NCBI GenBank assembly: GCA_963693365.1
Contig: CAVNZM010000002.1
Location: 16,091,615 to 16,155,614 of the forward strand
Reading direction: 5' to 3'
Length of the DNA stretch: 64,000 nt
Source: Amoebidium appalachense
Taxonomy: Eukaryota > Protista > Ichthyosporea
Below the pieces are notes generated by a model that saw only the letters and a list, made by a program, of their open reading frames with translations, had not been told where the DNA came from and searched no databases. The position numbers and the translations under genes were made by a program. Positions 101 through 59,754 of this stretch are shown here, in pieces (position 1 is the first letter of the stretch; each line of letters opens with the position of its first letter).

Positions 101-131
<31 letters not shown>

Positions 132-135
132 GGGG

Positions 136-280
136 TTTTGAATGCGTCAAAAAGTACGAAGTACACAAGAACAAACGGATAACACGATGCAGAATGCAAG
201 CCATACATAAAGAGTATGCATAATAAGCAGAGGGGGGGGGGGGGTTTGAATGCGGAACACAGTACGAAGTACGCATAGAC
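136..280 (-). mobile_element. Two short poly(C)-associated element 3' fragments (B at 136-231; A at 245-280)
   Basis: G-run + TTTGAATGCG...GTACGAAGTAC... + G-run; reverse complements of the ends at 51998 and 50873. Confidence 0.72.
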
Positions 281-1846
281 GGGGGGGAGAATGTCAACAG
301 CATGGATTGTTGTTCAATTCACTTGTACGTAGTGTCTCAACGGCAACACACTGACATGCGCCTGGAGGGACATCCCCTCCCTGGGTTGCATGCAGTTTGT
401 CAAGCAGGCATGTGCAACGATCATGTTTCAGTCTAGCTTCTGCACGTGGTTGGACATACATACACACCCACACACATTCACACCTATACTATGTATGTAC
501 ACACACAGACGGGTAGGTGCGCACACATCTTTTTTTTTTTTAATATCGAATAATATATAGACATACGCACATGTACAAGCATGCACATACGAATACCCGC
601 ACACACACACTTTATACTAATGCATACACACATCTTTATGGCATCTAACATGATGTTTCCATACAGGGATTGGTTCTTCGTGTGCACACCCTCGTCAAGT
701 TATCCGAGTCTAAATTGGACGGCACGTGTGACTCGGACACATGCTCATAAAACTACACAATCTTTTTCATTTACTAAGTTTCTCAACTAAATGATAGCTT
801 GACACAACTTGAATGTGTATGTTATGGTGGCCCGGGAATCGTACACACGTAAACAATTTACACTTTCTCTTATCTTTTATTTGACACATGCACACATGTG
901 CATCCTTCTCAGTCATTCGTATGATCACATCATCACCCACAGCTGTGCACTAGTAATCGTGTAACACGTGCCGTGTCTTTTCATATGCACACTTGAATCC
1001 TCGGCAAATTTGCTCATATCTAATCTACCCAATAGCGGTTTGTGGTCATACGTCAACACAGTGAAGGTAACCTTTCTCTTAATTATTGCTGTAGTGGGTG
1101 GTAGTCTACAATAGCGGGAAACGGGAAGCTATGCTTATGACTTCTTTCTGAAACTTACCTTTTGGTTTCTTCTTCATTTCTTTAAAGGCGAGTGGGGAAG
1201 GGACCAGGAGAGCGGAGGAAAAGTGTAAGGGGAAGGGCGGGAAACCCGCATGTACAGTACCAATAGTATGAATGCTTAAAGATTATGTGTTGGATTTAAA
1301 ACAGTGACACGTGCGCCTGCTCAAGCAAAACGTATGAGATACAAAAGCAGTGTGTACATAGATGTAGCTTAGTGCGAAATTGGGATTGTGAATAAACGAT
1401 ACCAAAAAAAACTTGCCGCTAGTGTAAGACCAGCACCGTGCCATGTCCCCCCCCCCCCTCCCCCCAACACACACACACACACACGTGTTAAACGGCAGGG
1501 TGAAATGTGTGTGCACGTGTGTGGGCGGGCGGAAACTATGAAAAGATCGTGTATCACCCCACCCCATCCCCATACCACCGTTACCACACACGCACGTACA
1601 CGCACGCGCGCACACCGGTCCCACCACTACAAAAAAGAGAACGAAGTAAGGTTCGGAAGGGAGAAATAAAAAAAAGGACCGAAGGTTTAAACATGCATCA
1701 AAAAGCGAGAGGACAACTTAAAATCTTTGAACTGTCCGGTGCAGGTGTTGTCTTGAGTGCATTTGAGCTTTCGCACCAAAAACCACCTCAGGCAGCTAAT
1801 AACAACCACATCACTTTATGTGCAACGTGTGTGAAGAAGGCATGCG

Positions 1847-22544: not shown

Positions 22545-25019
22545 TTTTCTTGCATAGTGATTCCGGGGTCTAGGTGGAGTATGGGGACATCATTCAGTGG
22601 TATGGGGAGAATCTGATGCAGCGGCGGCTGATTGTTTGGTGCGCGCGTGCACTATGGCATGCTCCATGCCTCTGCGTACTCTTCGACATGTTATATGTTG
22701 TATTGCTTCTTGCTGTGTGCTTGGCGAGACCCATGACCCGACGCCACCTTTCTCGCATACTTCGATCCTACAGCTCCCTACAACACCACACTTAACCGTG
22801 CTGACGCAGAGGCCGCTGCCCGGGCCTCTTGGCAACGCGGGGTGCTTTCAAGAATGGCCAACGCCCACGCAATAATTGCGGGCTGTCAAGGCAGCCACAC
22901 TTTACCCGGCACACGACAGCCGGGTCAAAACAGCAGCTGAGGTGCGTGCCTACTGGGAGGCTCAGCACGTGCAGGTCTTCAGCAAGCCCTACGACCCCAC
23001 CGCCGCACCAGCCAACTCCCAGTAAGCATGCTCTCCTTTCTTTTCTGGAATGCTCGTAGTCTAAATAAGGGTAAAGCACAGTCTTCTTTCGTTATCCCAA
23101 CAGGAGTTCCCGTTTATTGTTGTCGCAGAAACGTGCCAGTGGTGGCGAGACCACGCCACACTTCGTCGGTCTGGACGGCTCGTGGGCGAGTCTACTCAGC
23201 CTGTGGGCCACAAGCCTCACTCTGGCATAGTGTTCATCGCCGCCTCCCACTTTGTTAACCACTGTTCAGTTATAGCACGTACAATACACACACTCACCAT
23301 CTCAGTTTGTGGCGATATATGCACTTTTGTTTATTTTACACCTAGCCTTCCACTGCTAGCACTTACACACGAACGTAACACCAATGCCCCACATAACCCC
23401 ACAGTAGTGTTAGGAGACTTTAGTAGCCCGCTAGTTACCACACCACACCCCACTGGACATAGTACACGGCCACCCACAGGCCCTACTTAAACCCAACAAC
23501 CCACGCACGCCAACCTTTCACACTTTTGTTACAGCCTTACACCTTACTCTTCCATCTGTAGTACAAGAACACCGCACGGACTGGGGGGCAGCCTCTGGTC
23601 CTTGCACCTTACACGTACACCACAACCTACACCCACCACCGTCAGACCACCTACCTATAGTCTTTCGCACTACACTTAGCCTTTCTACGCCGTCACCACA
23701 ACACATTTACAGACTTAGTAACGTACGCGAACTTAAAAGCCAGCGCGGCCAAGCAGACACTCGCTTCTTTTTCCAGACGGTGCAACCGAGTCTATTATCG
23801 CTTGTGCGTGATGGACGCCAAACCCCGCTACGCACCAACCAGACCTTCATCGATAGCGTCTGGTCTACAGTACGAGAAACCTTGTGGGACATAGGTGAAT
23901 ATGCCTGTTTAGGTGCCCAAGTTTACCCACAAGCACGAACTACACACACTCGCGGCCCTAGGCCTCGAGCGGAGGCTGCCTTACGTAAGCCTCTACCGTA
24001 TCACATGTTATTGGGTAATATTCGGAAGATTGATCGCGGCGATCATTCGATTCGAATGACGGCCGACCCGTCATCCGACCCGGAAACTGCAACCGATTCC
24101 TTTTACGGCACCCTGTTTAACCGTAACCCGACATGTACGGCCACGGACCTGGGGCAGGCGCCCCCTCCTGTTTTTGTTCCACCCTCCGACACACAACCAC
24201 CACCCCCACACACGGCATGGCCAGCGGGGCCGGCTGAGTTTGGGGCTGAACTGGGGGAACTTTTTACCCCAGATGCGGTATGGCAGTTAGTATCCCGTTA
24301 CCCGTCCCGCAAAGCGTGCGGGCCGGACGGCATCCCTATGGCACTACTTAAGGTACTCATCCCACCCCGACCCGAGAAAGACGAAAAGCGTGGCCCGCCG
24401 CGACAGATCTTACATGTATTCTTAGCGAATTGTTTAGCTGGTATTCTGATGTTGGTAAAGTGCCCTCGGAGTGGCTAGCCACCATAGTGTTTCCCATCAA
24501 GAAAACGGTTGCACGGGGTCCCATTCACGAATTTCGCCCTATCACCCTTACGTCCGTTTTTCGCCGATTATTCGAAAGTGGCCTTTTACAGGCCTTTTCC
24601 CGTAACCCCACCCTTAAGCAGGCTTCCCAGCTGAGCCCTCTTCAGGCGGCGTTTCGGCATCGACACTCATGTTACGCACAAATCCTCACTCTACATAATG
24701 CAACTCAAAGTGATACCGAGCACCTCGTATTTATCGATTTTAAGAACGCGTACGACACGGTCGACCTCCCTCGCCTGTGGGCCAAGTTGGCCATTCGCGG
24801 TGTCCCATTCCAAATGGGTCGGCTACTGGAAGCTATGTTTACGTTTACACGCGGACGAGCGGTGGTTAATGGGCGGCTATCCCCAGGGTTTACCCGCACG
24901 CGCGGGGTACTTCAAGGGTCCCTGCTAAGCCCTCTTCTTTTCAACCTGTATATTGATGATTTAGCCGACGCTCTTTCTGCGGCACAAATTGACGGGGGGT
25001 TGCCATCCCAGGCTCCCCC

Positions 25020-26468
25020 TGTTGGAAGTAGAGTCCGCTGTGACTAGGGTCGTCGTGGCGCGCTTGGGCGCTGACCCGTTTTTTACTGCTTTCAGTGTGT
25101 TAACTCCATGACTGAACTCCATGACTTTACTCCATGTCTTTACTCCATGACTGAACTCCATGACTGAACTCCATGTCTGAACTCCATGACTGAACTCCAT
25201 GACTGAACTCCATGACTGAACTCCATGACTGAACTCCATGACTTAACTCCATGACTTAACTCCATGACTGAACTCCATGACTGAACTCCATGTCTTTACT
25301 CCATGACTGAACTCCATGTCTGCACCTGGCAGAGACGTGGCTTATATACCCGTGGGGCAGCAGTCTGGAATGTAATCCGGATGCCAGGCGCTAATCGGAT
25401 TGGTTACTTTCATTTAGATATCTCTGGGACCAGTGAACCAATCGTTTGCAGTCAAAACACAATTGGCAACATTCCTCAACTATGCAGATGTGCATGTGGT
25501 GATCGAGTGTCAGCATGTGTCTATGTACACGGAACCAATTGTAAAGCTAACATACACATATAGTGGAGTGAGCGTAAGTCTGCACTCCAACACCCCTACC
25601 CAATTGGAGAAGTGTACACACCACTAGAGAAGAGAGAGTGAGTGTGGCTGCTTGCAGGGTAGACCGGGGTGTGCATTCCACTGTGGTGCGTGCCCCGCCA
25701 ATGAAGTGGAATACTTGACGTTGATGTCGCAGGCTGCTGCGGATGGAGTTTGTGGAAGCGAAAGTCTCTACTTCACGGAAATACGCTCGCGGGTGTAGGG
25801 TACAGCCTAGAAGTCGGTTTCTGGGCTCCTCCGTTCAAGGCGTCGTAGGGGACGTGAAGTTAGAGGCCGCGGTGTCGTGTCTGGGCCCATAACCCTGTTG
25901 GAAGTAGAGTCCGCTGTGACTAGGGTCGTCGTGGCGCGCTTGGGCGCTGACCCGTTTTTTACTGCTTTCAGTGTGTTAACTCCATGACTGAACTCCATGA
26001 CTTTACTCCATGTCTTTACTCCATGACTGAACTCCATGACTGAACTCCATGTCTGAACTCCATGACTGAACTCCATGACTGAACTCCATGACTGAACTCC
26101 ATGACTGAACTCCATGACTTAACTCCATGACTTAACTCCATGACTGAACTCCATGACTGAACTCCATGTCTTTACTCCATGACTGAACTCCATGTCTGCA
26201 CCTGGCAGAGACGTGGCTTATATACCCGTGGGGCAGCAGTCTGGAATGTAATCCGGATGCCAGGCGCTAATCGGATTGGTTACTTTCATTTAGATATCTC
26301 TGGGACCAGTGAACCAATCGTTTGCAGTCAAAACACAATTGGCAACATTCCTCAACTATGCAGATGTGCATGTGGTGATCGAGTGTCAGCATGTGTCTAT
26401 GTACACGGAACCAATTGTAAAGCTAACATACACATATAGTGGAGTGAGCGTAAGTCTGCACTCCAACA
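25020..26468 (-). mobile_element. Non-autonomous copia-type LTR element (TRIM-like): two 573-bp LTRs and a 303-bp non-coding interior
   Basis: LTRs 25020-25592 and 25896-26468 (TGTTGGA...TCCAACA) look identical. 5-bp TSD CCCCC at 25015-19 and 26469-73; removing the element restores the RT frame A-P-P-A-L-F-F-A-D. PBS at 25881-25895, PPT GGGTAGGGG beside the minus-strand 3' LTR, TATATAA in the LTR on the minus strand. Confidence 0.93.
25098..25318. repeat. 17 x 13-bp tandem array (ACTGAACTCCATG and variants) inside the LTR; second copy at 25974-26194
   Basis: Visible directly; same variant order in both LTRs. Confidence 0.92.
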
Positions 26469-27910
26469 CCCCCCGCCCTCTTTTTTGCCGACAATATTGT
26501 GCTTATGTCATCCGATCCTATCGAACTACGGCAATACATTCGTGTGGTTGAACATTGGTGCCAGCGCAACGATTATGAAGGTTAATGTCAAAAAGTGTGC
26601 CCTTTTATCAAAATCGATACCGGCATGGGACGACGTTTGTATTTTCGGCAGTCCCCTCCCTCGCCCAATCGAATACAAGTATTTGGGGATTCCGGTGGAC
26701 GAATGGGGCATATGTTTCAAAGTTTAACGGATGATCGACCGTCGGGTGGGAGTGCAGGCAGGTGTCTTCGGTTATTTAGGGATGTGTATCTTTCTACAGT
26801 AACTCTTTCTCATACTGTCCACCTATACAATCGTCTTAGTATATTTCGCACATATATTCGCCCTTTGTCTGAATACGGGTTGCCCTTACTAGCTATGGCA
26901 CCCCCTGATACTGTTACTAATGTCCTCTTGAAATCATTAGATGATTTCCACTACACAACAGTTACTTGTTGTACGTTTCTCACTGGTCTTTCCACACCTA
27001 TCCCTAGACGCCTTTTTGATTCTCTCTACGCACTCACACCACCATCACAACGCGTACACGAATTAGTCCTTAAATTTCACGAGCACATCACCCGCCTGTC
27101 CGCTTGTGCCCCGGACCACCCGCTCTTCCGGCTACACGCATCCCCGCCGGACTCGCCCCTCTACCTCTTCCCTTCCCCATCGTCTCTGCCCATTGCCGAG
27201 CATTATGTGGAATGGCTGGCGACCCCACCGGAGGTACGGCTAGATCATAGTGTGAATATGAATAGTTTCAAGTCTATGACTGATAGATATCTTTTTACTC
27301 TACGTGTTGAGTCCCTTCTGGTGTTAGGACCGCAAAAACACCAACTACTAGTAGCCTATATCATGGCGGATACGGTTAGAGAGTCTCGTTCATACATAGA
27401 TTCGTTTATTCGTAATGTGGTGTGGTGTAAAAACGCAAAGATGATTATGGCTTGGCGGTGTAATCGGTTTCTGGTGTCTCCTGCTCGTATGTGTAATATG
27501 TGTGGGGGGCGGTTTACTCGCGGCTGCATATAGGATCCTATATCTATCAATAAGTGCAACCTGTTAGCTAACATATTAGAACCGGAGGTTATTGGCGGTT
27601 TTATTCTCGTTTCTTCCTCTCTTCCTCAATATATCCGTTTTAAGATGACTATCCTAGATCACCTTATTAATGCTGCACAGTATGATATTGTGATCCGGTG
27701 CCTTAACTTTCTTTCGGAGCTACCGATGCTAGCCTCTGCTTAGTCCATAATATGTAATAGGGGTGTCAGATACTACGATGGCGCTCATTGTTGCCTAGCA
27801 TGTACATATGTCACTGGCTGCATTTGATTGGCTGTGCTGGAAAGCGCAGTAGGCCGTCGAATGTGGCTGGGCCTCCGGCAGTGTCCACGCAATAAAAAGT
27901 GTATAAACCC

Positions 27911-29263
27911 CGTGGACACTGCCGGAGGCCCAGCCACATTCGACGGCCTACCGCGTTTTCCAGCGCAGCCAATCAAATGCAGCCAGTGAAATATGTACAT
28001 GCTAGGCAACAATGAGGCGTGGACACTGCCGGAGGCCCAGCCACATTCGACGGCCTACTGCGCTTTCCAGCACAGCCAATCAAATGCAGCCAGTGACATA
28101 TGTACATGCTAGGCAACAATGAGGGCCATCGTAGTATCTGACACCCCTATTACATATTATGGACTAAGCAGAGGCTAGCATCGGTAGCTCCAAAAGAAAG
28201 TTAAGGCACCGGATCACAATATCATACTGTGCAGCATTAATAAGGTGAATCAGATCTAGGATAGTCATCTTAAAACGGATATATTGAGGAAGAGAGGAAG
28301 AAAAGAGAATAAAACCGCCAATAACCTCCGGTTCTAATACATCAGCTAACAGGTTGCATTTATTGATGGATATGCAGCCGCGAGTAAACCGCCCCCCACA
28401 CATATTACACATACGAGCAGGAGACACCAGAAACCGATTACACCGCCAAGCCATAATCATCTTTGCGTTTTTACACCACACCACATTACGAATAAACGAA
28501 TCTATGTATGAACGAGACTCTCTAACCGTATCCGCCATATAGGCTACTAGTAGTTGGTGTTTTTGCGGTCCTAACACCGGAAGGGACTCAACTCGTAGAG
28601 TAAAAAGATATCTATCAGCCATAGACTTGAAACTATTCATATTCACACTATGATCTAGCCGTACCTCCGGTGGGGTCGCCAGCCATTCCACATAACGCTC
28701 GGCAATGGGCAGAGACGATGGGGAAGGGAAGAGGTAGAGGGGCGAGTCCGGCGGGGATGCGTGTAGCCGGAAGAGCGGGTCACCGTGGTCCGGGGCACAA
28801 GCGGACAGGCGGGTGATGTGCTCGTGAAATTTAAGGACTAATTCGTGTACGCGTTGTGATGGTGGTGTGAGTGCCTAGAGAGAATCAAAAAGGCGTCTAG
28901 GGATAGGTGTGGAAAGACCAGTGAGAAACGTACAACAAGTTGTGTAGTGGAAATCATCTATTGATTTGAGGACATTAGTAACAGTATCAGGGGTTGCCAT
29001 AGCTAGTAAGGGCAACCCGTATTCAGACAAAGGGCGAATATATGTGCGAAATATACTAAGACGATTGTATAGGTGGACAGTATGAGAAAGAGTAGCAAGA
29101 TACACATCCCTAAATAACCGAAGACACCTGCCTGCACTCTCCACCCGACGGTCGATCGTCCGTTTGAAACATATGCCCCATTCGTCCACCGGAATCCCCA
29201 AATACTTGTATTCGATTGGGCGAGGGAGGGGACTGCCGAAAATACAAACGTCGTCCAATGCCG
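27911..29263 (-). mobile_element. 5'-truncated second copy of the same LINE, inverted, with a tandemly duplicated ~105-bp 3' terminus
   Basis: Reverse complement of ~26621-27889 with scattered differences. Flanked by GCAATAAAAAGTGTRTAAACCCC at 27889-27911 and 29271-29293 (TSD, one mismatch). Confidence 0.9.
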
Positions 29264-30311: not shown

Positions 30312-43643
<13,332 letters not shown>

Positions 43644-44518: not shown

Positions 44519-49993
<5,475 letters not shown>

Positions 49994-50178
49994 GGTGAGT
50001 TGCTGCCCGTGCCACAAACACAAACAAAGACAAAAAGAACAACAGCAGCACACACACTAACACAAAAACAACACTCACACGATCACACGCGCGCGCACAC
50101 ACATACACACACACACACACATTCTCTTTCTCTCTCCCCTCTCTCTCTCTTTCTCCCTCCCCACTTTCTCTCTCTCTT

Positions 50179-50221
<43 letters not shown>

Positions 50222-50272
50222 CCCTCCCTCTCTCTCCCTCCCCCCCTCCCCCCCCCCCCCCCCCCCTTCCCC

Positions 50273-50418
50273 TTGGGCCCTCCCTGAGGATGGGCCCTGC
50301 TTATGACGCATACTGTGCGCATGGATGATGTTGCATACTTGAATGTTTGCCTTTGCATGTGTCCTGCACCATGCTTCTCATCATGTATGCGTACCTCGTA
50401 CCGTGTTCCGCATTCAAA
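50273..50418 (+). mobile_element. Poly(C)-associated element, subfamily A, truncated copy
   Basis: TTGGGCCCTCCCTGAGGATGGG...CCGCATTCAAA with C-runs on both sides. Confidence 0.75.
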
Positions 50419-50425
50419 CCCCCCC

Positions 50426-50873
50426 AGTCTTCTTTCAGAGGTGTCCTTTCAGGACAGACCACTGTGTGGAGGCCGCTTTACTTCCATGCAACCGGGCATG
50501 GTTGCTCTGTGTCGTGCATCTGTAAGCACATACACAATTTTCGCTGCACTGCATTAGTTTGCACACACATCTTCACCGTTTTGCTCACCTTGCTTGCATA
50601 AGCAACCCTGCTCGTCTTTGATCAAGGCGGGTTGACCCTCCCAAGTTCAGTTGATGCTGCTGCTGTCTGAGTTGGAGAGTCGTATATACGCGGGCTAAGG
50701 GGTCGAAACTCAGACGCAATTGATGACTTGGGCCCTCCCTGAGGATGGGCCCTGCTTATGACGCATACTGTGCGCATGGATGATGTTGCATACTTGAATC
50801 TTTGCCTTTGCATGTGTCCTGCACCATGCTTCTCGTCGTGTATGCGTACTTCGTACCGTGTTCCGCATTCAAA
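50426..50873 (+). mobile_element. Poly(C)-associated retroelement fragment, subfamily A, long copy
   Basis: 3' ~145 nt nearly identical to 50273-50418, 45663-45810 and inverted 30786-30914. Ends GCATTCAAA+CCCCC. 5' limit uncertain. Confidence 0.72.
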
Positions 50874-51163
50874 CCCCCCTTCCCCTCCTCCTTCCCCTCC
50901 CATTTTCTCTGCACACTCAACAGGTCTTAACCAGCTCTGCACATCGTTAGTCACAATCTTCTCTCATATATGAGAGAATGATCGTATTGGTACGATTTGT
51001 CTAATATCTGACGATTCTGCAGCATCCCTAAGACCCCCCTCCCCACTCCCCCCCCCTCCCCCCCCCCCCCCCCTTTTTTTCTCTCTCTATCTCTTTTTTT
51101 TTTGGCACCTGTTGTTTTGCTTGTCATTTGTTGTTCTGGTTGATTACCTGTAAACTTCGCTTA

Positions 51164-51198
<35 letters not shown>

Positions 51199-51339
51199 TG
51201 TGCGGGGTTGCACACACCGGTGTCTACTTTTCTTCCTACTGTTTTTCTCTCCACACACTTCATCTGTCCACTTCTGCATACCCCCTCTCATAGCTATAGA
51301 CACACTTCACACATTGCGTTACGCGCACGCATGCACACA

Positions 51340-51998
51340 CCGCTCTGTTGGCGACAGCTCCCTTGGAACCCATGCGGCATGTTACCCGCCGGCGTAACAT
51401 AACTCGGACTATCGATTTGGCTTTTTTCAAGCCCAAAGCAATGGGTGATACCATATTTCCGGCTGACATCCGGGGGCATAGCTTTCCGTTCGAAGACGTT
51501 AAAGTTCCACCCTAGTAAGCGTGTTACTTCCCTGCCGCGTGGGTCAAATCTCATATTTTCCCCTCTGATTGCGAATTCTGCGGCCTTCGGGACTTAATTC
51601 TTTTTAGCTGGTGTAGTATGTTAGCCAGGGAAGTATCGACTTAGGTAGCGACGGGGGGGCTTCCTAGAAGCCCCGTCTCCTGAGTTCCTGTCTATATTTT
51701 TCTTGCTTCTGCTTACTGCTGCAACTTTAACCCCCGGCCTTTCCCACTGCCCTTGCCTGCATAAGCAACCCTGCTCGTCTCTGATCAAGACGGGTGACCT
51801 ACCCATGTTCAAGTGAAACAGTATCTGAGTTGGGTTTCGTTAACGAGGTGAATAGGTCGAAACTCGGGTACTGTGGATGACGTGGGCCCCCACTGAGGAT
51901 GGGCTCTGCTATATTGCATACTCTTTATGTATGGCTTGCATTCTGCATCGTGTTATCCGTTTGTTGTTGTGTACTTCGTACTTTTTGACGCATTCAAA
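51340..51998 (+). mobile_element. Poly(C)-associated retroelement fragment, subfamily B, longest copy (possible ORF tail plus structured 3' region)
   Basis: Ends GTACTTCGTAC...GCATTCAAA followed by a C-run. Its 3' ~95 nt match 136-231 in inverted orientation. Shares the structured domain with 50596-50760. 5' limit approximate. Confidence 0.7.
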
Positions 51999-52067
51999 CC
52001 CCCCTCCCGCCCCCCCTCTCTGCTCTGTCTCTCCCTCTCTTCCCCCCTTCCTCTCCCTGTCTCTCTG

Positions 52068-52105
<38 letters not shown>

Positions 52106-57054: not shown

Positions 57055-58452
57055 TCACTTCAGCCACTCTGCCTCGTGCACCCCCAGTGGTCCAGGGGGA
57101 ACCAACTCCACCCCAGCCATTCCCTCTACGTGCCCTTGGTGCTTTACCCTTTTCAGTGTCCCAAACCCACTCTCTACCGTCTCCATATACTCCTCAAAAT
57201 CTGTTACACTTAGGGGCGTCTGCACGGGCTCTTCAACCACTCCCAAAGACCACAAGAACTCAGCCATAGCAGCAAGCGAAGTGCTAATCGTCGCAATTTT
57301 TCCGTTCTTCTCCCTTTCCGTGATTGCACTCATGACCGCAGCAGCAAGAAGATGTCCTGTTGCGTGATCCAATGCCTGGACAGGGAGGGCCACGGGTGCT
57401 TGTTTTGCGTAAACTCGCATTCCATATTCGGCAATTCCGGTCGACATCTGCACCAAACTGTCAAACCCCCTTCTGCATTTCCATTCACCCGTCCACCCGT
57501 ACGCGTTAAGCCGTGCCACTATGAGGTTGGGCTGGTGCTCTCTGAGTGTCTCAACACTCAAACCGAGCTTGGACATTGCATCTCCCCTGTAGCCAACCAC
57601 CAACACGTCCGCCTCCGAAACCAGCTGCATAAACTTATCTCTCCCTCGGGGTGTTTTAAGGTCCAAATATGCTCGCCGTTTTCCTGCGGACGTTTCCGGA
57701 AGGGCTGCGGGGACGTCTGCAAAGTTGGGGGGGTCTATACGGAGGATATCGGCGCCGTATGCTCCTAGGGCACGTGTGCACACCGGGCCAGCAATGACAC
57801 GTGTCAGGTCAAGGACGCGGACCCCCCCCAGCGGCAGTGAATTTTCACCCAACCAAGGATGGGCCCTTCTGCTGTTTTGCGCCTGGTGGTAGGATGTATG
57901 AACGAGTGGCTCCGTGCAGGCGGCTTGCCCTACGACACTATCCAGCCATTCCTTTCTGGTATGCATCACTGCGGCACAACCACCCTCCCTCACCACCGCA
58001 CTTTCTAGTGCTTCTGATAACCACATGCTCACTGCTTTCTCCACTTCTCGTTTATCCGGCCCCACACCTAAAACACGCAAAACGGCATTGCGATGTGCTT
58101 CGTAGTTTGTGTGCAGCCGTATCCACCCAACATCTGTTTTGTAGTTTCCAGCGATGGGATCCCACAATTCCGGAACATTCCAACCTATACCGGAATTTAG
58201 TCTCTCACCGTGGAAGGCCGCCACACAACCCAACCTGTCTACAGTAGCCTTAGGAAGCTCTTGCTTATTTCTTTGCGCAAAAATTTCTGCTGCAGCCAAA
58301 GCTGTGGCCCCGACAACACCTACACACAGTTCGGAGAGGTGAAACGGGCCCATGGGTGGTGGTGGCTGGATGCCGGTCACTATAAGGCAGGAGAGGAGGG
58401 AGGGATTCCCTCCTACCGCTGCCCATACCTGTTTGAGGGCTTTGGCTTCCAT
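57055..58452 (-). CDS. CoA-transferase family III (CaiB/BaiF), 465 aa, intronless
   Basis: Motifs PLGGVRVLDLTRVIAGPVCTRALGAYGADILRID, GKRRAYLDLK, ADVLVVGYR, GFDSLVQ (catalytic Asp) and QALDHATG. Confidence 0.93.
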   Translation of the reverse strand: MEAKALKQVWAAVGGNPSLLSCLIVTGIQPPPPMGPFHLSELCVGVVGATALAAAEIFAQRNKQELPKATVDRLGCVAAFHGERLNSGIGWNVPELWDPIAGNYKTDVGWIRLHTNYEAHRNAVLRVLGVGPDKREVEKAVSMWLSEALESAVVREGGCAAVMHTRKEWLDSVVGQAACTEPLVHTSYHQAQNSRRAHPWLGENSLPLGGVRVLDLTRVIAGPVCTRALGAYGADILRIDPPNFADVPAALPETSAGKRRAYLDLKTPRGRDKFMQLVSEADVLVVGYRGDAMSKLGLSVETLREHQPNLIVARLNAYGWTGEWKCRRGFDSLVQMSTGIAEYGMRVYAKQAPVALPVQALDHATGHLLAAAVMSAITEREKNGKIATISTSLAAMAEFLWSLGVVEEPVQTPLSVTDFEEYMETVESGFGTLKRVKHQGHVEGMAGVELVPPGPLGVHEAEWLK

Positions 58453-59754
58453 GCTCCATGGACTTTGTGGAATGACTTGAAAGATGCACGAATAACGGAA
58501 TAACTGACTCTGATTAGATGTTGATACTGATATTGGTTCGAGAACTATAAGTCTTCAAATAATTCGACGTGTACCTGCCGGAGCTGCGAGTTTTTTTCGC
58601 TCACGTTTTGGGTGGCATTTGTGGCACCAAGGCCTCCGTTTTTGTGTGCCGAGCCGAACGGCCTAGCGCCGGTACCGGCGGTGTCACGGGTTTGCTTGGA
58701 AGTTGGAACATCGCGCTCTAGAAAATATGCATAAGCATAATATCCAATCATCGAGCTGCACTTAAACACCAATCACAACAAGCTAGATCTAATTGACTTG
58801 CATTCCTCAGATCTCGGCACTGTAGCCCTACTCCCGGGAAGCGGGCAAGCGGCTGCCCGGCGTCGCACCGTGCGCACGCGTTCGACCACAACTGCTCCAT
58901 AACTGAACAGAAACCTTTCAAAATATTCTATAAGGCCAGCATAATAATCCATGGGGCTAGCACATAGATTTATTTCATATCAGTCGTAGTACTGTACCGC
59001 GGTAAGGTAAAACACATTCCAATGTAAATGCCTTTGAACCGAGGCGCCGTTTTATTGGTGTAGCGCGCATCAACCCTATCTATCATATGCTATTTTTAGT
59101 GTTTACAACTTGAACAGCCACGAGGCTTCATTGACAGCCACGGGCGTCTGTCAGTGCTCACGAATTCAACAGCAAAACTGTTTGTAAAAGAAGCACTGTT
59201 TGAGATGTTTGCTTGACTTGTGGTCAAAGCTTTGTGATTTTGGGTAAACAATCGCCCTCCGGAAAAGTGCTATAGCTGCTTTTTGTGTAAGACATCTCGG
59301 GAAATACATGGTTAGAATCTTTGGTGAGATGCGTATAGTTTGAGTAATTTTCTTTCAAAGACACAAGAGCATTCGTCCCCATCGCACGGCAGATGGTGTA
59401 GGATAGTCTGAGGTGGCAGTTGGCATAGGGTCAAGTGGTTGCATTGTCTTTCTTTTCATACAAAGTCAAACTAGTTTTGGCCATGCGGCTTAGTTGACAA
59501 ACAGCAACATCCTGGCTTTAGAGCATACTTATTCTGACTGCATCCGAAAAAGCGTGCCCACAGCGCAATTTTCTGCTGTGTTCTCGCCACCATCACCGCC
59601 GTAGGCCGTGTCACAGCAATTACACACAAGTAGGTTATATCATATATTATACAGATACTGAGGAAATAGCATCCACAAAGCTCCTATGCACATAAATTTC
59701 CAAAATCGGTCAAAAGGCCACTCATCAGCCAGCAATCACGCATAAGATCTGCAG

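Follow-up and report, generated by a model that had tools for sequence, protein, structure and literature searches.

Two repeat subfamilies share a pseudoknotted fold near their 3' ends

The window analysed here is a 64-kb stretch of Amoebidium appalachense DNA containing two repeat subfamilies, A and B, in two full and eight 5'-truncated copies on both strands (Table 1). A protein encoded near the repeats shows 96% identity to an Amoebidium parasiticum protein in EukProt. Repeats of both subfamilies terminate in TTCAAAC plus a run of C and carry a pseudoknotted RNA fold near the 3' end. A C-run of at least six directly follows all seven of the 3' ends detected by BLAST, against a background of 4% of positions, and the carrier ends are placed in C-runs and microsatellites. 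Both subfamilies are very abundant, with 22,604 contigs of run X1 and 10,255 of run X5 placed on the 1751-nt stretch that holds A and B. Runs X18 and X20 each supply a one-piece A and a B-type contig bridging the core, and run X15 a one-piece A and two B-type pieces. The tandem junction 50424/50425 is spanned by a contig (X13 record 9); the partial copy upstream of this junction carries the CUGAGGA block only, so that a ribozyme cannot form from it alone. Depth over the B element is high from 51204, and a single 552-nt contig spans 51205-51722.

Table 1. Positions in the window of the candidate ribozymes, their parts and the repeats that carry them
Feature	Coordinates	Strand	Remarks
Ribozyme A (candidate), whole fold	50597..50760	+	outer stem 50597-50604 / 50753-50760
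A P1b	50606-50608 / 50747-50749	+	
A hairpin P2	50611..50631	+	directly 5' of G10.1; part of the core-splitting insertion
A stem II	50634..50639 / 50699-50704	+	G10.1 = 50634; C11.1 = 50704
A stem 'I'	50640..50646 / 50726-50732	+	continued 50647-50653 / 50717-50723
A block S	50665..50677	+	stem III strand 50665-50672 (partner 50708-50715); GUU 50671-50673
A predicted cut	50673/50674	+	by analogy
A stem I	50674-50677 / 50735-50738	+	
A block G	50699..50715	+	stem II 3' strand, GAAA 50705-50708, stem III 3' strand
A half-block C1	50735..50746	+	stem I 3' strand, CUGAGGA 50739-50745, extra U 50746
Ribozyme B (candidate), whole fold	51760..51914	+	
B P2	51774-51794	+	
B stem II	51796-51801 / 51853-51858	+	
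B stem 'I'	51802-51808 / 51880-51886	+	
B stem III	51819-51830 / 51862-51873	+	
B GUU; predicted cut	51829-51831; 51831/51832	+	cut by analogy
B stem I	51832-51834 / 51890-51892	+	
B core boxes	51859-51862; 51893-51899	+	GAAA; CUGAGGA
Subfamily A unit	50425..50880	+	~455 nt; ends in C-run; no ORF seen
Partial upstream copy of A 3' end	50272..50424	+	97% identity over 153 nt to 50727-50879; partial tandem, pseudo-LTR-like
Subfamily B element	51204..52004	+	at least 800 nt; 5' end uncertain (contig depth); ends in C-run
5'-truncated A copy	45663..45822	+	
Truncated B, then head-to-tail truncated A	30772..31063	-	B 31063-30927; A 30915-30772; C-run joint
Truncated A, then truncated B	127..281	-	A 281-233; B 232-127; C-run joint

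In their 5' truncation, partial tandem arrangement and 3' ends in poly-C, the A and B carriers behave like Penelope-like elements. No ORF with an N-terminal GIY-YIG domain, CxC motif and reverse transcriptase was seen in the 64-kb window, nor was an autonomous partner for A and B found there. The LINE at 23065-27890 (RVT_1) was ruled out as that partner by its different 3' end. The region 23065-29263 is a broken LINE-like element whose 3' part has a 580-nt direct and a 1.27-kb inverted duplication. A 71-aa frame of B had no homologue among 12 candidates, leaving the idea that the 5' part of B is a reverse-transcriptase tail unsupported. A tRNA-derived SINE was likewise set aside, as ARAGORN found 0 genes in 50200-52100, a search that a decayed head could escape. 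A non-LTR retrozyme would be expected to have at least two tandem type-I units; each locus here holds one complete core, which is not type-I.

The 5' ends of the truncated copies fall at several places. Three A copies (50272, 45663 and 30915) start within 1-2 nt of the equivalent of 50727, in the 3' strand of stem 'I'. Stalling of reverse transcriptase where the units join may account for this shared start, or the three copies may form a mini-family of their own, 150 nt long. Other 5' starts lie at 51871 and 51904 in the window, and there are joints to 50706 and 50733.

The fold contains a complete hammerhead core in non-circular order

The original prediction described a set of conserved helices in the two full copies, including a crossing pair that forms a pseudoknot, and all of them were located where it had placed them. 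It left the fold in an unknown class. Because the inner stem ends in U-A beside GAAA, we recognise it as stem III of a hammerhead, in which GUU is the cut triplet; the crossing helix, whose first pair beside GAAA is G-C, is stem II. The core boxes CUGAnGA and GAAA are present in both A and B, as is an NUH triplet with A15.1-U16.1 closing a stem III of 8 bp in A and 12 bp in B. Stem II (6 bp in each) opens with a G-C pair at R10.1-Y11.1 before GAAA. Stem I and the GUU cut site had been absent from the earlier description. Stem I abuts H17 and C3 and has 4 bp in A; in the window copy of B its first pair is a G.A mismatch beside the cut site, caused by an A at 51892 where ~99% of family depth, in four of four runs, has the C that gives G-C.

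In both copies the strands run in the order stem II 5' strand, cut-site block, GAAA block, CUGAGGA block. This is the cyclic order S-G-C of the non-circularly permuted hammerheads of Eckert et al. 2023, so the earlier statement that the order of the pieces fits neither hammerhead nor HDV no longer applies to the hammerhead. As in type-SGC, stems I and II are held together at their distal ends by stem 'I'. The departure lies in block C, which is uninterrupted in type-SGC/CSG and here is split after A9. In place of a link from A9 to 10.1 that is direct or made through 1-2 nt, the outer stem and P2 intervene, and the best-supported stem II strand lies upstream. After A9 come a U and a helix running to the 5' end, and P2 precedes the stem II 5' strand, so the chain ends enter between A9 and G10.1. 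P2 has 7 bp in A and B with one U-G/U-A change, the family majority being A at 50627. In both subfamilies, self-complementary words occur in the P2 loop and in the loop of the hairpin within the S-to-G linker (50618-50624, 50681-50690, 51782-51787 and 51838-51845), making kissing dimers possible.

An Rfam comparison proposed with the prediction was run on the window and returned 0 matches at gathering score; nine matches with E up to 10 included no ribozyme, and neither fold matched the Rfam hammerhead models (types I-III). The lack of an Rfam match does not by itself imply a new ribozyme class, and with its full core of CUGAGGA, GAAA, GUU triplet and stems I, II and III the fold is, on the evidence of its motifs, not one. 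The ribozyme reading offered earlier is likely. Pistol, twister, hatchet, hairpin and VS ribozymes, compared through their layouts, gave no fit. We propose, with a probability of roughly 0.72, a hammerhead in non-circular permutation in which two helices, inserted after A9, divide the CUGAnGA block. On the same proposal, the transcript of the Penelope-like carrier is likely cut by it after GUU, at 50673 in A and 51831 in B.

Core residues are invariant while the stems change

In their alignment A and B agree at 126 of the 177 columns. For the 41 named pairs, pairing holds in 80 of 81 cells of these two rows, and five pairs have changed on both sides and three on one; as the structure was derived from the same two sequences, this count is biased and serves as description only. 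The family majority repairs the single broken pair, which belongs to the window copy of B. Double changes are present in stems I, II, III and 'I': stem I is A-U in A and G-C in B at the changed pair, and the 7-bp stem 'I' has one double change, from A-U to U-G. A and B agree at every one of the 17 positions of the hammerhead core, compared with 54 of 95 elsewhere in 50634-50745, and the GAAA-to-CUGA spacing is equal. In the flanking stems, A/B identity exceeds what pairing requires. In the survey of variable positions just 5 of 186 reached the 2% level of variation, which makes the lack of variants in the core weak support.

For the crossing pair, the helix predicted earlier is present, and its covariation holds in part. 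At position 50639 an A makes up 29% of summed contig depth in X1, 11% in X5, 62% in X14 and 42% in X2, and it is also the base in the single contigs from X13, X15, X18 and X20; no entry for the partner, 50699, stands among the variant rows listed. The distal pair of stem II is therefore weak evidence, and only one of the two stem II double changes is robust. A possible third subfamily is suggested by stem II strands GACTC/GAGTC at loose ends, 50636 (X15 record 4) and 50722 (X2), in separate, unlinked records; the pair would be a further compensatory change in stem II.

Two other helices of the earlier description changed on closer comparison. The outer stem, said to be imperfect in B, is so in the window copy; the missing T is present in the B copy at 232-127 and in loose ends of four of four runs. 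The GCCC..CTGAGGAT-GGGC hairpin occurs in the minimum-energy fold of A, and covariation favours the stem I pairing in its place: position 50736, U in A and C in B, keeps its pair with 50676 A or 51834 G, and the same U-to-C change would break a hairpin pair with the invariant A9.

An order-free hammerhead descriptor was run on 20,000 dinucleotide shuffles per copy. At the observed stringency 0/20,000 shuffles of A matched, and 3/20,000 at loose settings; for B, with one mismatch allowed, 11/20,000 matched. The window copy of B fails the strict descriptor because of the A at 51892. With both core words fixed, 0/10,000 shuffles of either copy matched at the observed stringency, and 106/10,000 (A) and 301/10,000 (B) did so at loose settings. 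Nested folding energy is unremarkable (z of -1.36 for A and -0.43 for B), and freeing the core strands costs 9.6 kcal/mol in A and 3.9 in B relative to the nested minimum, with pseudoknot helices uncounted. Core invariance, double changes and shuffle tests bear out the original view that two retroelement subfamilies carry a selected pseudoknotted RNA fold.

The split layout recurs in Naiad 3' ends

Elements of the Naiad and Chlamys groups have partial tandems, 5' truncation and a tail of 30-40 bp at one end, and they favour microsatellites for insertion, with a (C)n bias in Chlamys; canonical hammerheads are reported absent from them in the available portions of Craig et al. 2021 (PMC8557442). 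The same portions list Naiads from animals, with a preference for (TA)n, and tag some Naiad records 'HHR_core' or 'HHR_half_core'. We compared by eye the last ~400-450 nt of 51 of the 54 Naiad records in its supplement. Eight of the 51 ends have the split layout with different stem sequences, and these come from five independent animal lineages: a ctenophore (Bfor), corals (Amil, Aacu and Anas, near-identical), an acanthocephalan (Plae), a crustacean (EuTe) and octopuses (Obim and Ovul, near-identical). In each, as judged by eye, P2 lies 0-1 nt before G10.1, stem II has 6 bp (one mismatch in Aacu) and 1-2 nt follow A9. By the same inspection, stem II cannot be built from the sequence that comes after CUGAnGA in any of the five lineages, which settles the ambiguity of stem II in copy A.

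A further eight Naiads, all nematode (Ppac, by position, Parc, Nbra 1-3, Hcon, Hpol and Asuum), appear by eye to carry type CSG in its intact form, stem 'I' included; in Hpol the triplet is GUU. No such motif set was visible in the final ~400-450 nt of the remaining 35 of these 51 ends; Naiad_Esco is a near match with an ambiguous stem II and was left out of the count. Hammerhead-free ends among these supplement records often share other conserved motifs, as seen by eye. One of them, in the Naiads Movir1, Chem4, Mley and several bivalves, we take to be twister-like. A second is shared by Naiads of oysters, hemichordates and Chem1-2 in the same portion of the records. Judging from these motifs, the Naiad 3' position may hold interchangeable ribozymes.

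The carriers of A and B resemble Naiads in the split layout (8 of the 51 ends), partial tandems, 5' truncation and microsatellite insertion, as far as the accessible records go, and differ in having an ichthyosporean host, a (C)n target and no ORF found. With Chlamys and non-autonomous derivatives such as MRC1, in the material available, they share the (C)n bias and short non-coding tandem derivatives, and four of the five (C)n-annotated Chlamys ends shown close with AAC and a C-run like A and B. In spite of these similar ends, no hammerhead core was visible by eye in the last ~380 nt of 14 chlorophyte Chlamys 3' ends, out of ~49 records.

Pattern scans for further relatives gave 95 viral loci and at least 117 metagenome loci. 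BLAST of A and B against the 212 loci listed gave 0 matches, as did a two-sequence covariance model in 52 of these 212. The best-scoring loci were rejected: one (L126) lies inside a long ORF and two (L212 and L016) do not have the layout.

Comparison with known hammerheads

According to the portions of Eckert et al. 2023 (PMC10085705) available, SGC, CSG and GCS examples cleave in vitro at 0.004-0.19 per min, stem 'I' joining stems I and II is required for cleavage, and block C is assumed to tolerate an insertion of 1-2 nt at most. Their SGC sequences come from metatranscriptome-derived contigs and their CSG sequences from metagenome DNA only. Against the examples in those portions, A and B share the cyclic block order, the full core and stem 'I', whose exact SGC site is occupied by the CCCAAGT/ACTTGGG helix of A. 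Unlike them, A and B have block C split after A9 by two helices and all three linkers closed; a hairpin occupies their S-to-G linker, of 21 or 18 nt compared with ~3 nt there, and they reside in a eukaryotic genome.

Penelope hammerheads conserve an extra nucleotide at the 9/10.1 position, as described in the accessible text of PMC4209133 and bioRxiv 10.64898/2026.07.22.740005, and a viroid hammerhead in the available material likewise has one. By analogy, 9/10.1 is a tolerant position of the hammerhead core. A and B resemble canonical Penelope-like elements and non-LTR retrozymes, as presented in these sources, in a hammerhead within the terminal repeat, an extra nucleotide after A9 and a G10.1-C11.1 pair; canonical elements and retrozymes are also proposed to cut tandem transcripts (PMC4209133; bioRxiv 10.64898/2026.07.22.740005, in part). 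The type-I hammerheads described there have the classical strand order and a minimal helix III needing dimers, whereas A and B are non-circular with a stem III of 8-12 bp.

We found no description of a hammerhead split after A9, of a permuted hammerhead in Naiads or of Penelope-like elements in Amoebidium in literature consulted mostly outside subscription journals. The split after A9 goes without mention in the accessible portions of PMC2632901, PMC6155905, PMC10162972, PMC3088659, PMC13725137, PMC11300833 and PMC8370743.

Predicted cleavage and alternative readings

By established hammerhead chemistry, the three strands would assemble the usual core despite the opening at A9/G10.1, and the predicted cut after GUU would leave 2',3'-cyclic phosphate and 5'-OH ends. 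More tentatively, by analogy with Penelope biology, cuts in successive head-to-tail units might yield unit-length RNA, perhaps circularised. An unseen reverse transcriptase of the Naiad/Chlamys clade would then copy the released RNA into poly-C tracts. Folding models indicate that a hairpin hiding CUGAGGA in A competes with the active fold and could slow or regulate the predicted cleavage. Several features weigh against the proposal: freeing the core strands is costly in energy, stem I has just 3-4 bp, the window copy of B is damaged, and no autonomous element was found in the window. The assumed limit of 1-2 nt for insertions into block C, and the lack of a visible core in the 14 Chlamys ends, count against it as well.

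The alternative that fares best, which we nevertheless consider unlikely, is that the hammerhead-derived fold has been retained chiefly so that the element's reverse transcriptase can bind or prime on it, and is cut rarely or not at all in cells. None of the eight truncated window copies starts at the predicted cut, while three start at stem 'I', and the identity of the flanking stems beyond pairing needs points the same way. In an anole Penelope element, hammerhead cleavage needed protein and was dispensable for insertion in vitro, hammerhead mutants being without effect on that insertion. Against this, the catalytic nucleotides are invariant between A and B and, by eye in the accessible Naiad records, across five animal lineages with differing stems, a pattern that fits selection on catalysis better than selection on a scaffold.

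We regard it as improbable that the fold is an ordinary hammerhead of type SGC, its block C uninterrupted, in which stem II would form through the strand at 50748-50753 after a 2-nt insertion and the upstream strand would be a decoy or switch. In A the two strands are close, the downstream one giving 6 bp at -8.1 kcal/mol and the upstream one -8.7, and insertions of 1-2 nt are allowed after A9 in the available portions of PMC10085705. In B, however, the downstream strand gives 4 bp at -2.2 against -6.7 upstream; the double changes track the upstream strand, stem 'I' is in register with that strand only, and the downstream partner is missing, by eye in the accessible records, in the five Naiad lineages.

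Less probable still is that the fold belongs to an undescribed class of ribozyme or is a variant of the HDV kind, with a cut perhaps near 50727. The lack of an Rfam match and the three A copies starting within 1-2 nt of 50727 would suit such a reading, but the complete hammerhead core accounts for the invariant residues and other 5' starts exist. The HDV layout has the P1 5' strand first, P3/L3 and the P1.1 nested double pseudoknot. Neither fold has this P1-first order, P3/L3 or the nested double pseudoknot with P1.1; the would-be P1 5' strand lies downstream, and an HDV reading of the pieces noted in the original prediction fails on these grounds and on the absent Rfam match. Chance pairing in two related repeats, for which one could cite the two full window copies only, the z-scores that are not significant and a structure fitted to the same sequences, is negligible given the shuffle tests and the recurrence of the layout in unrelated Naiad sequences.

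On a wider reading of the split hammerhead, its layout, shared by an ichthyosporean and, by eye, five animal lineages, would either predate animals or have crossed between them. We lean slightly towards this reading, in which a hammerhead opened through its catalytic core still cuts, and in which the split form is the hidden ribozyme of Penelope-like elements with a front endonuclease. If true, this would overturn the view printed in the available portions of PMC8557442 that Naiad/Chlamys elements have no hammerheads, and the assumption, in those of PMC10085705, of an uninterruptible CUGAnGA block. Non-circularly permuted hammerheads, until now almost only environmental sequence in the sources at hand, would gain a high-copy genomic home, with a unicellular relative of animals as host and (C)n as target. 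Standard Rfam searches miss the split layout, so genomic ribozyme counts are likely too low. A defined predicted cut site also makes the role of Penelope ribozymes testable.

Surroundings of the A and B repeats

At the head-to-tail junction the C-run is followed by sequences resembling splice acceptors (50425-50452 and 50518-50530), which recall the intron across the pseudo-LTR boundary of Chlamys-3_cRei in the accessible part of PMC8557442. Just upstream of A, an exon-like stretch identified by eye (49865-50000) ends in GTGAGT, so A and B probably lie in the sense strand within an intron of a host gene, whose pre-mRNA would be severed by cleavage there. On the minus strand at 57055-58554, an intronless ORF of CoA-transferase family III, of possible bacterial origin, lies within an intron-rich region.
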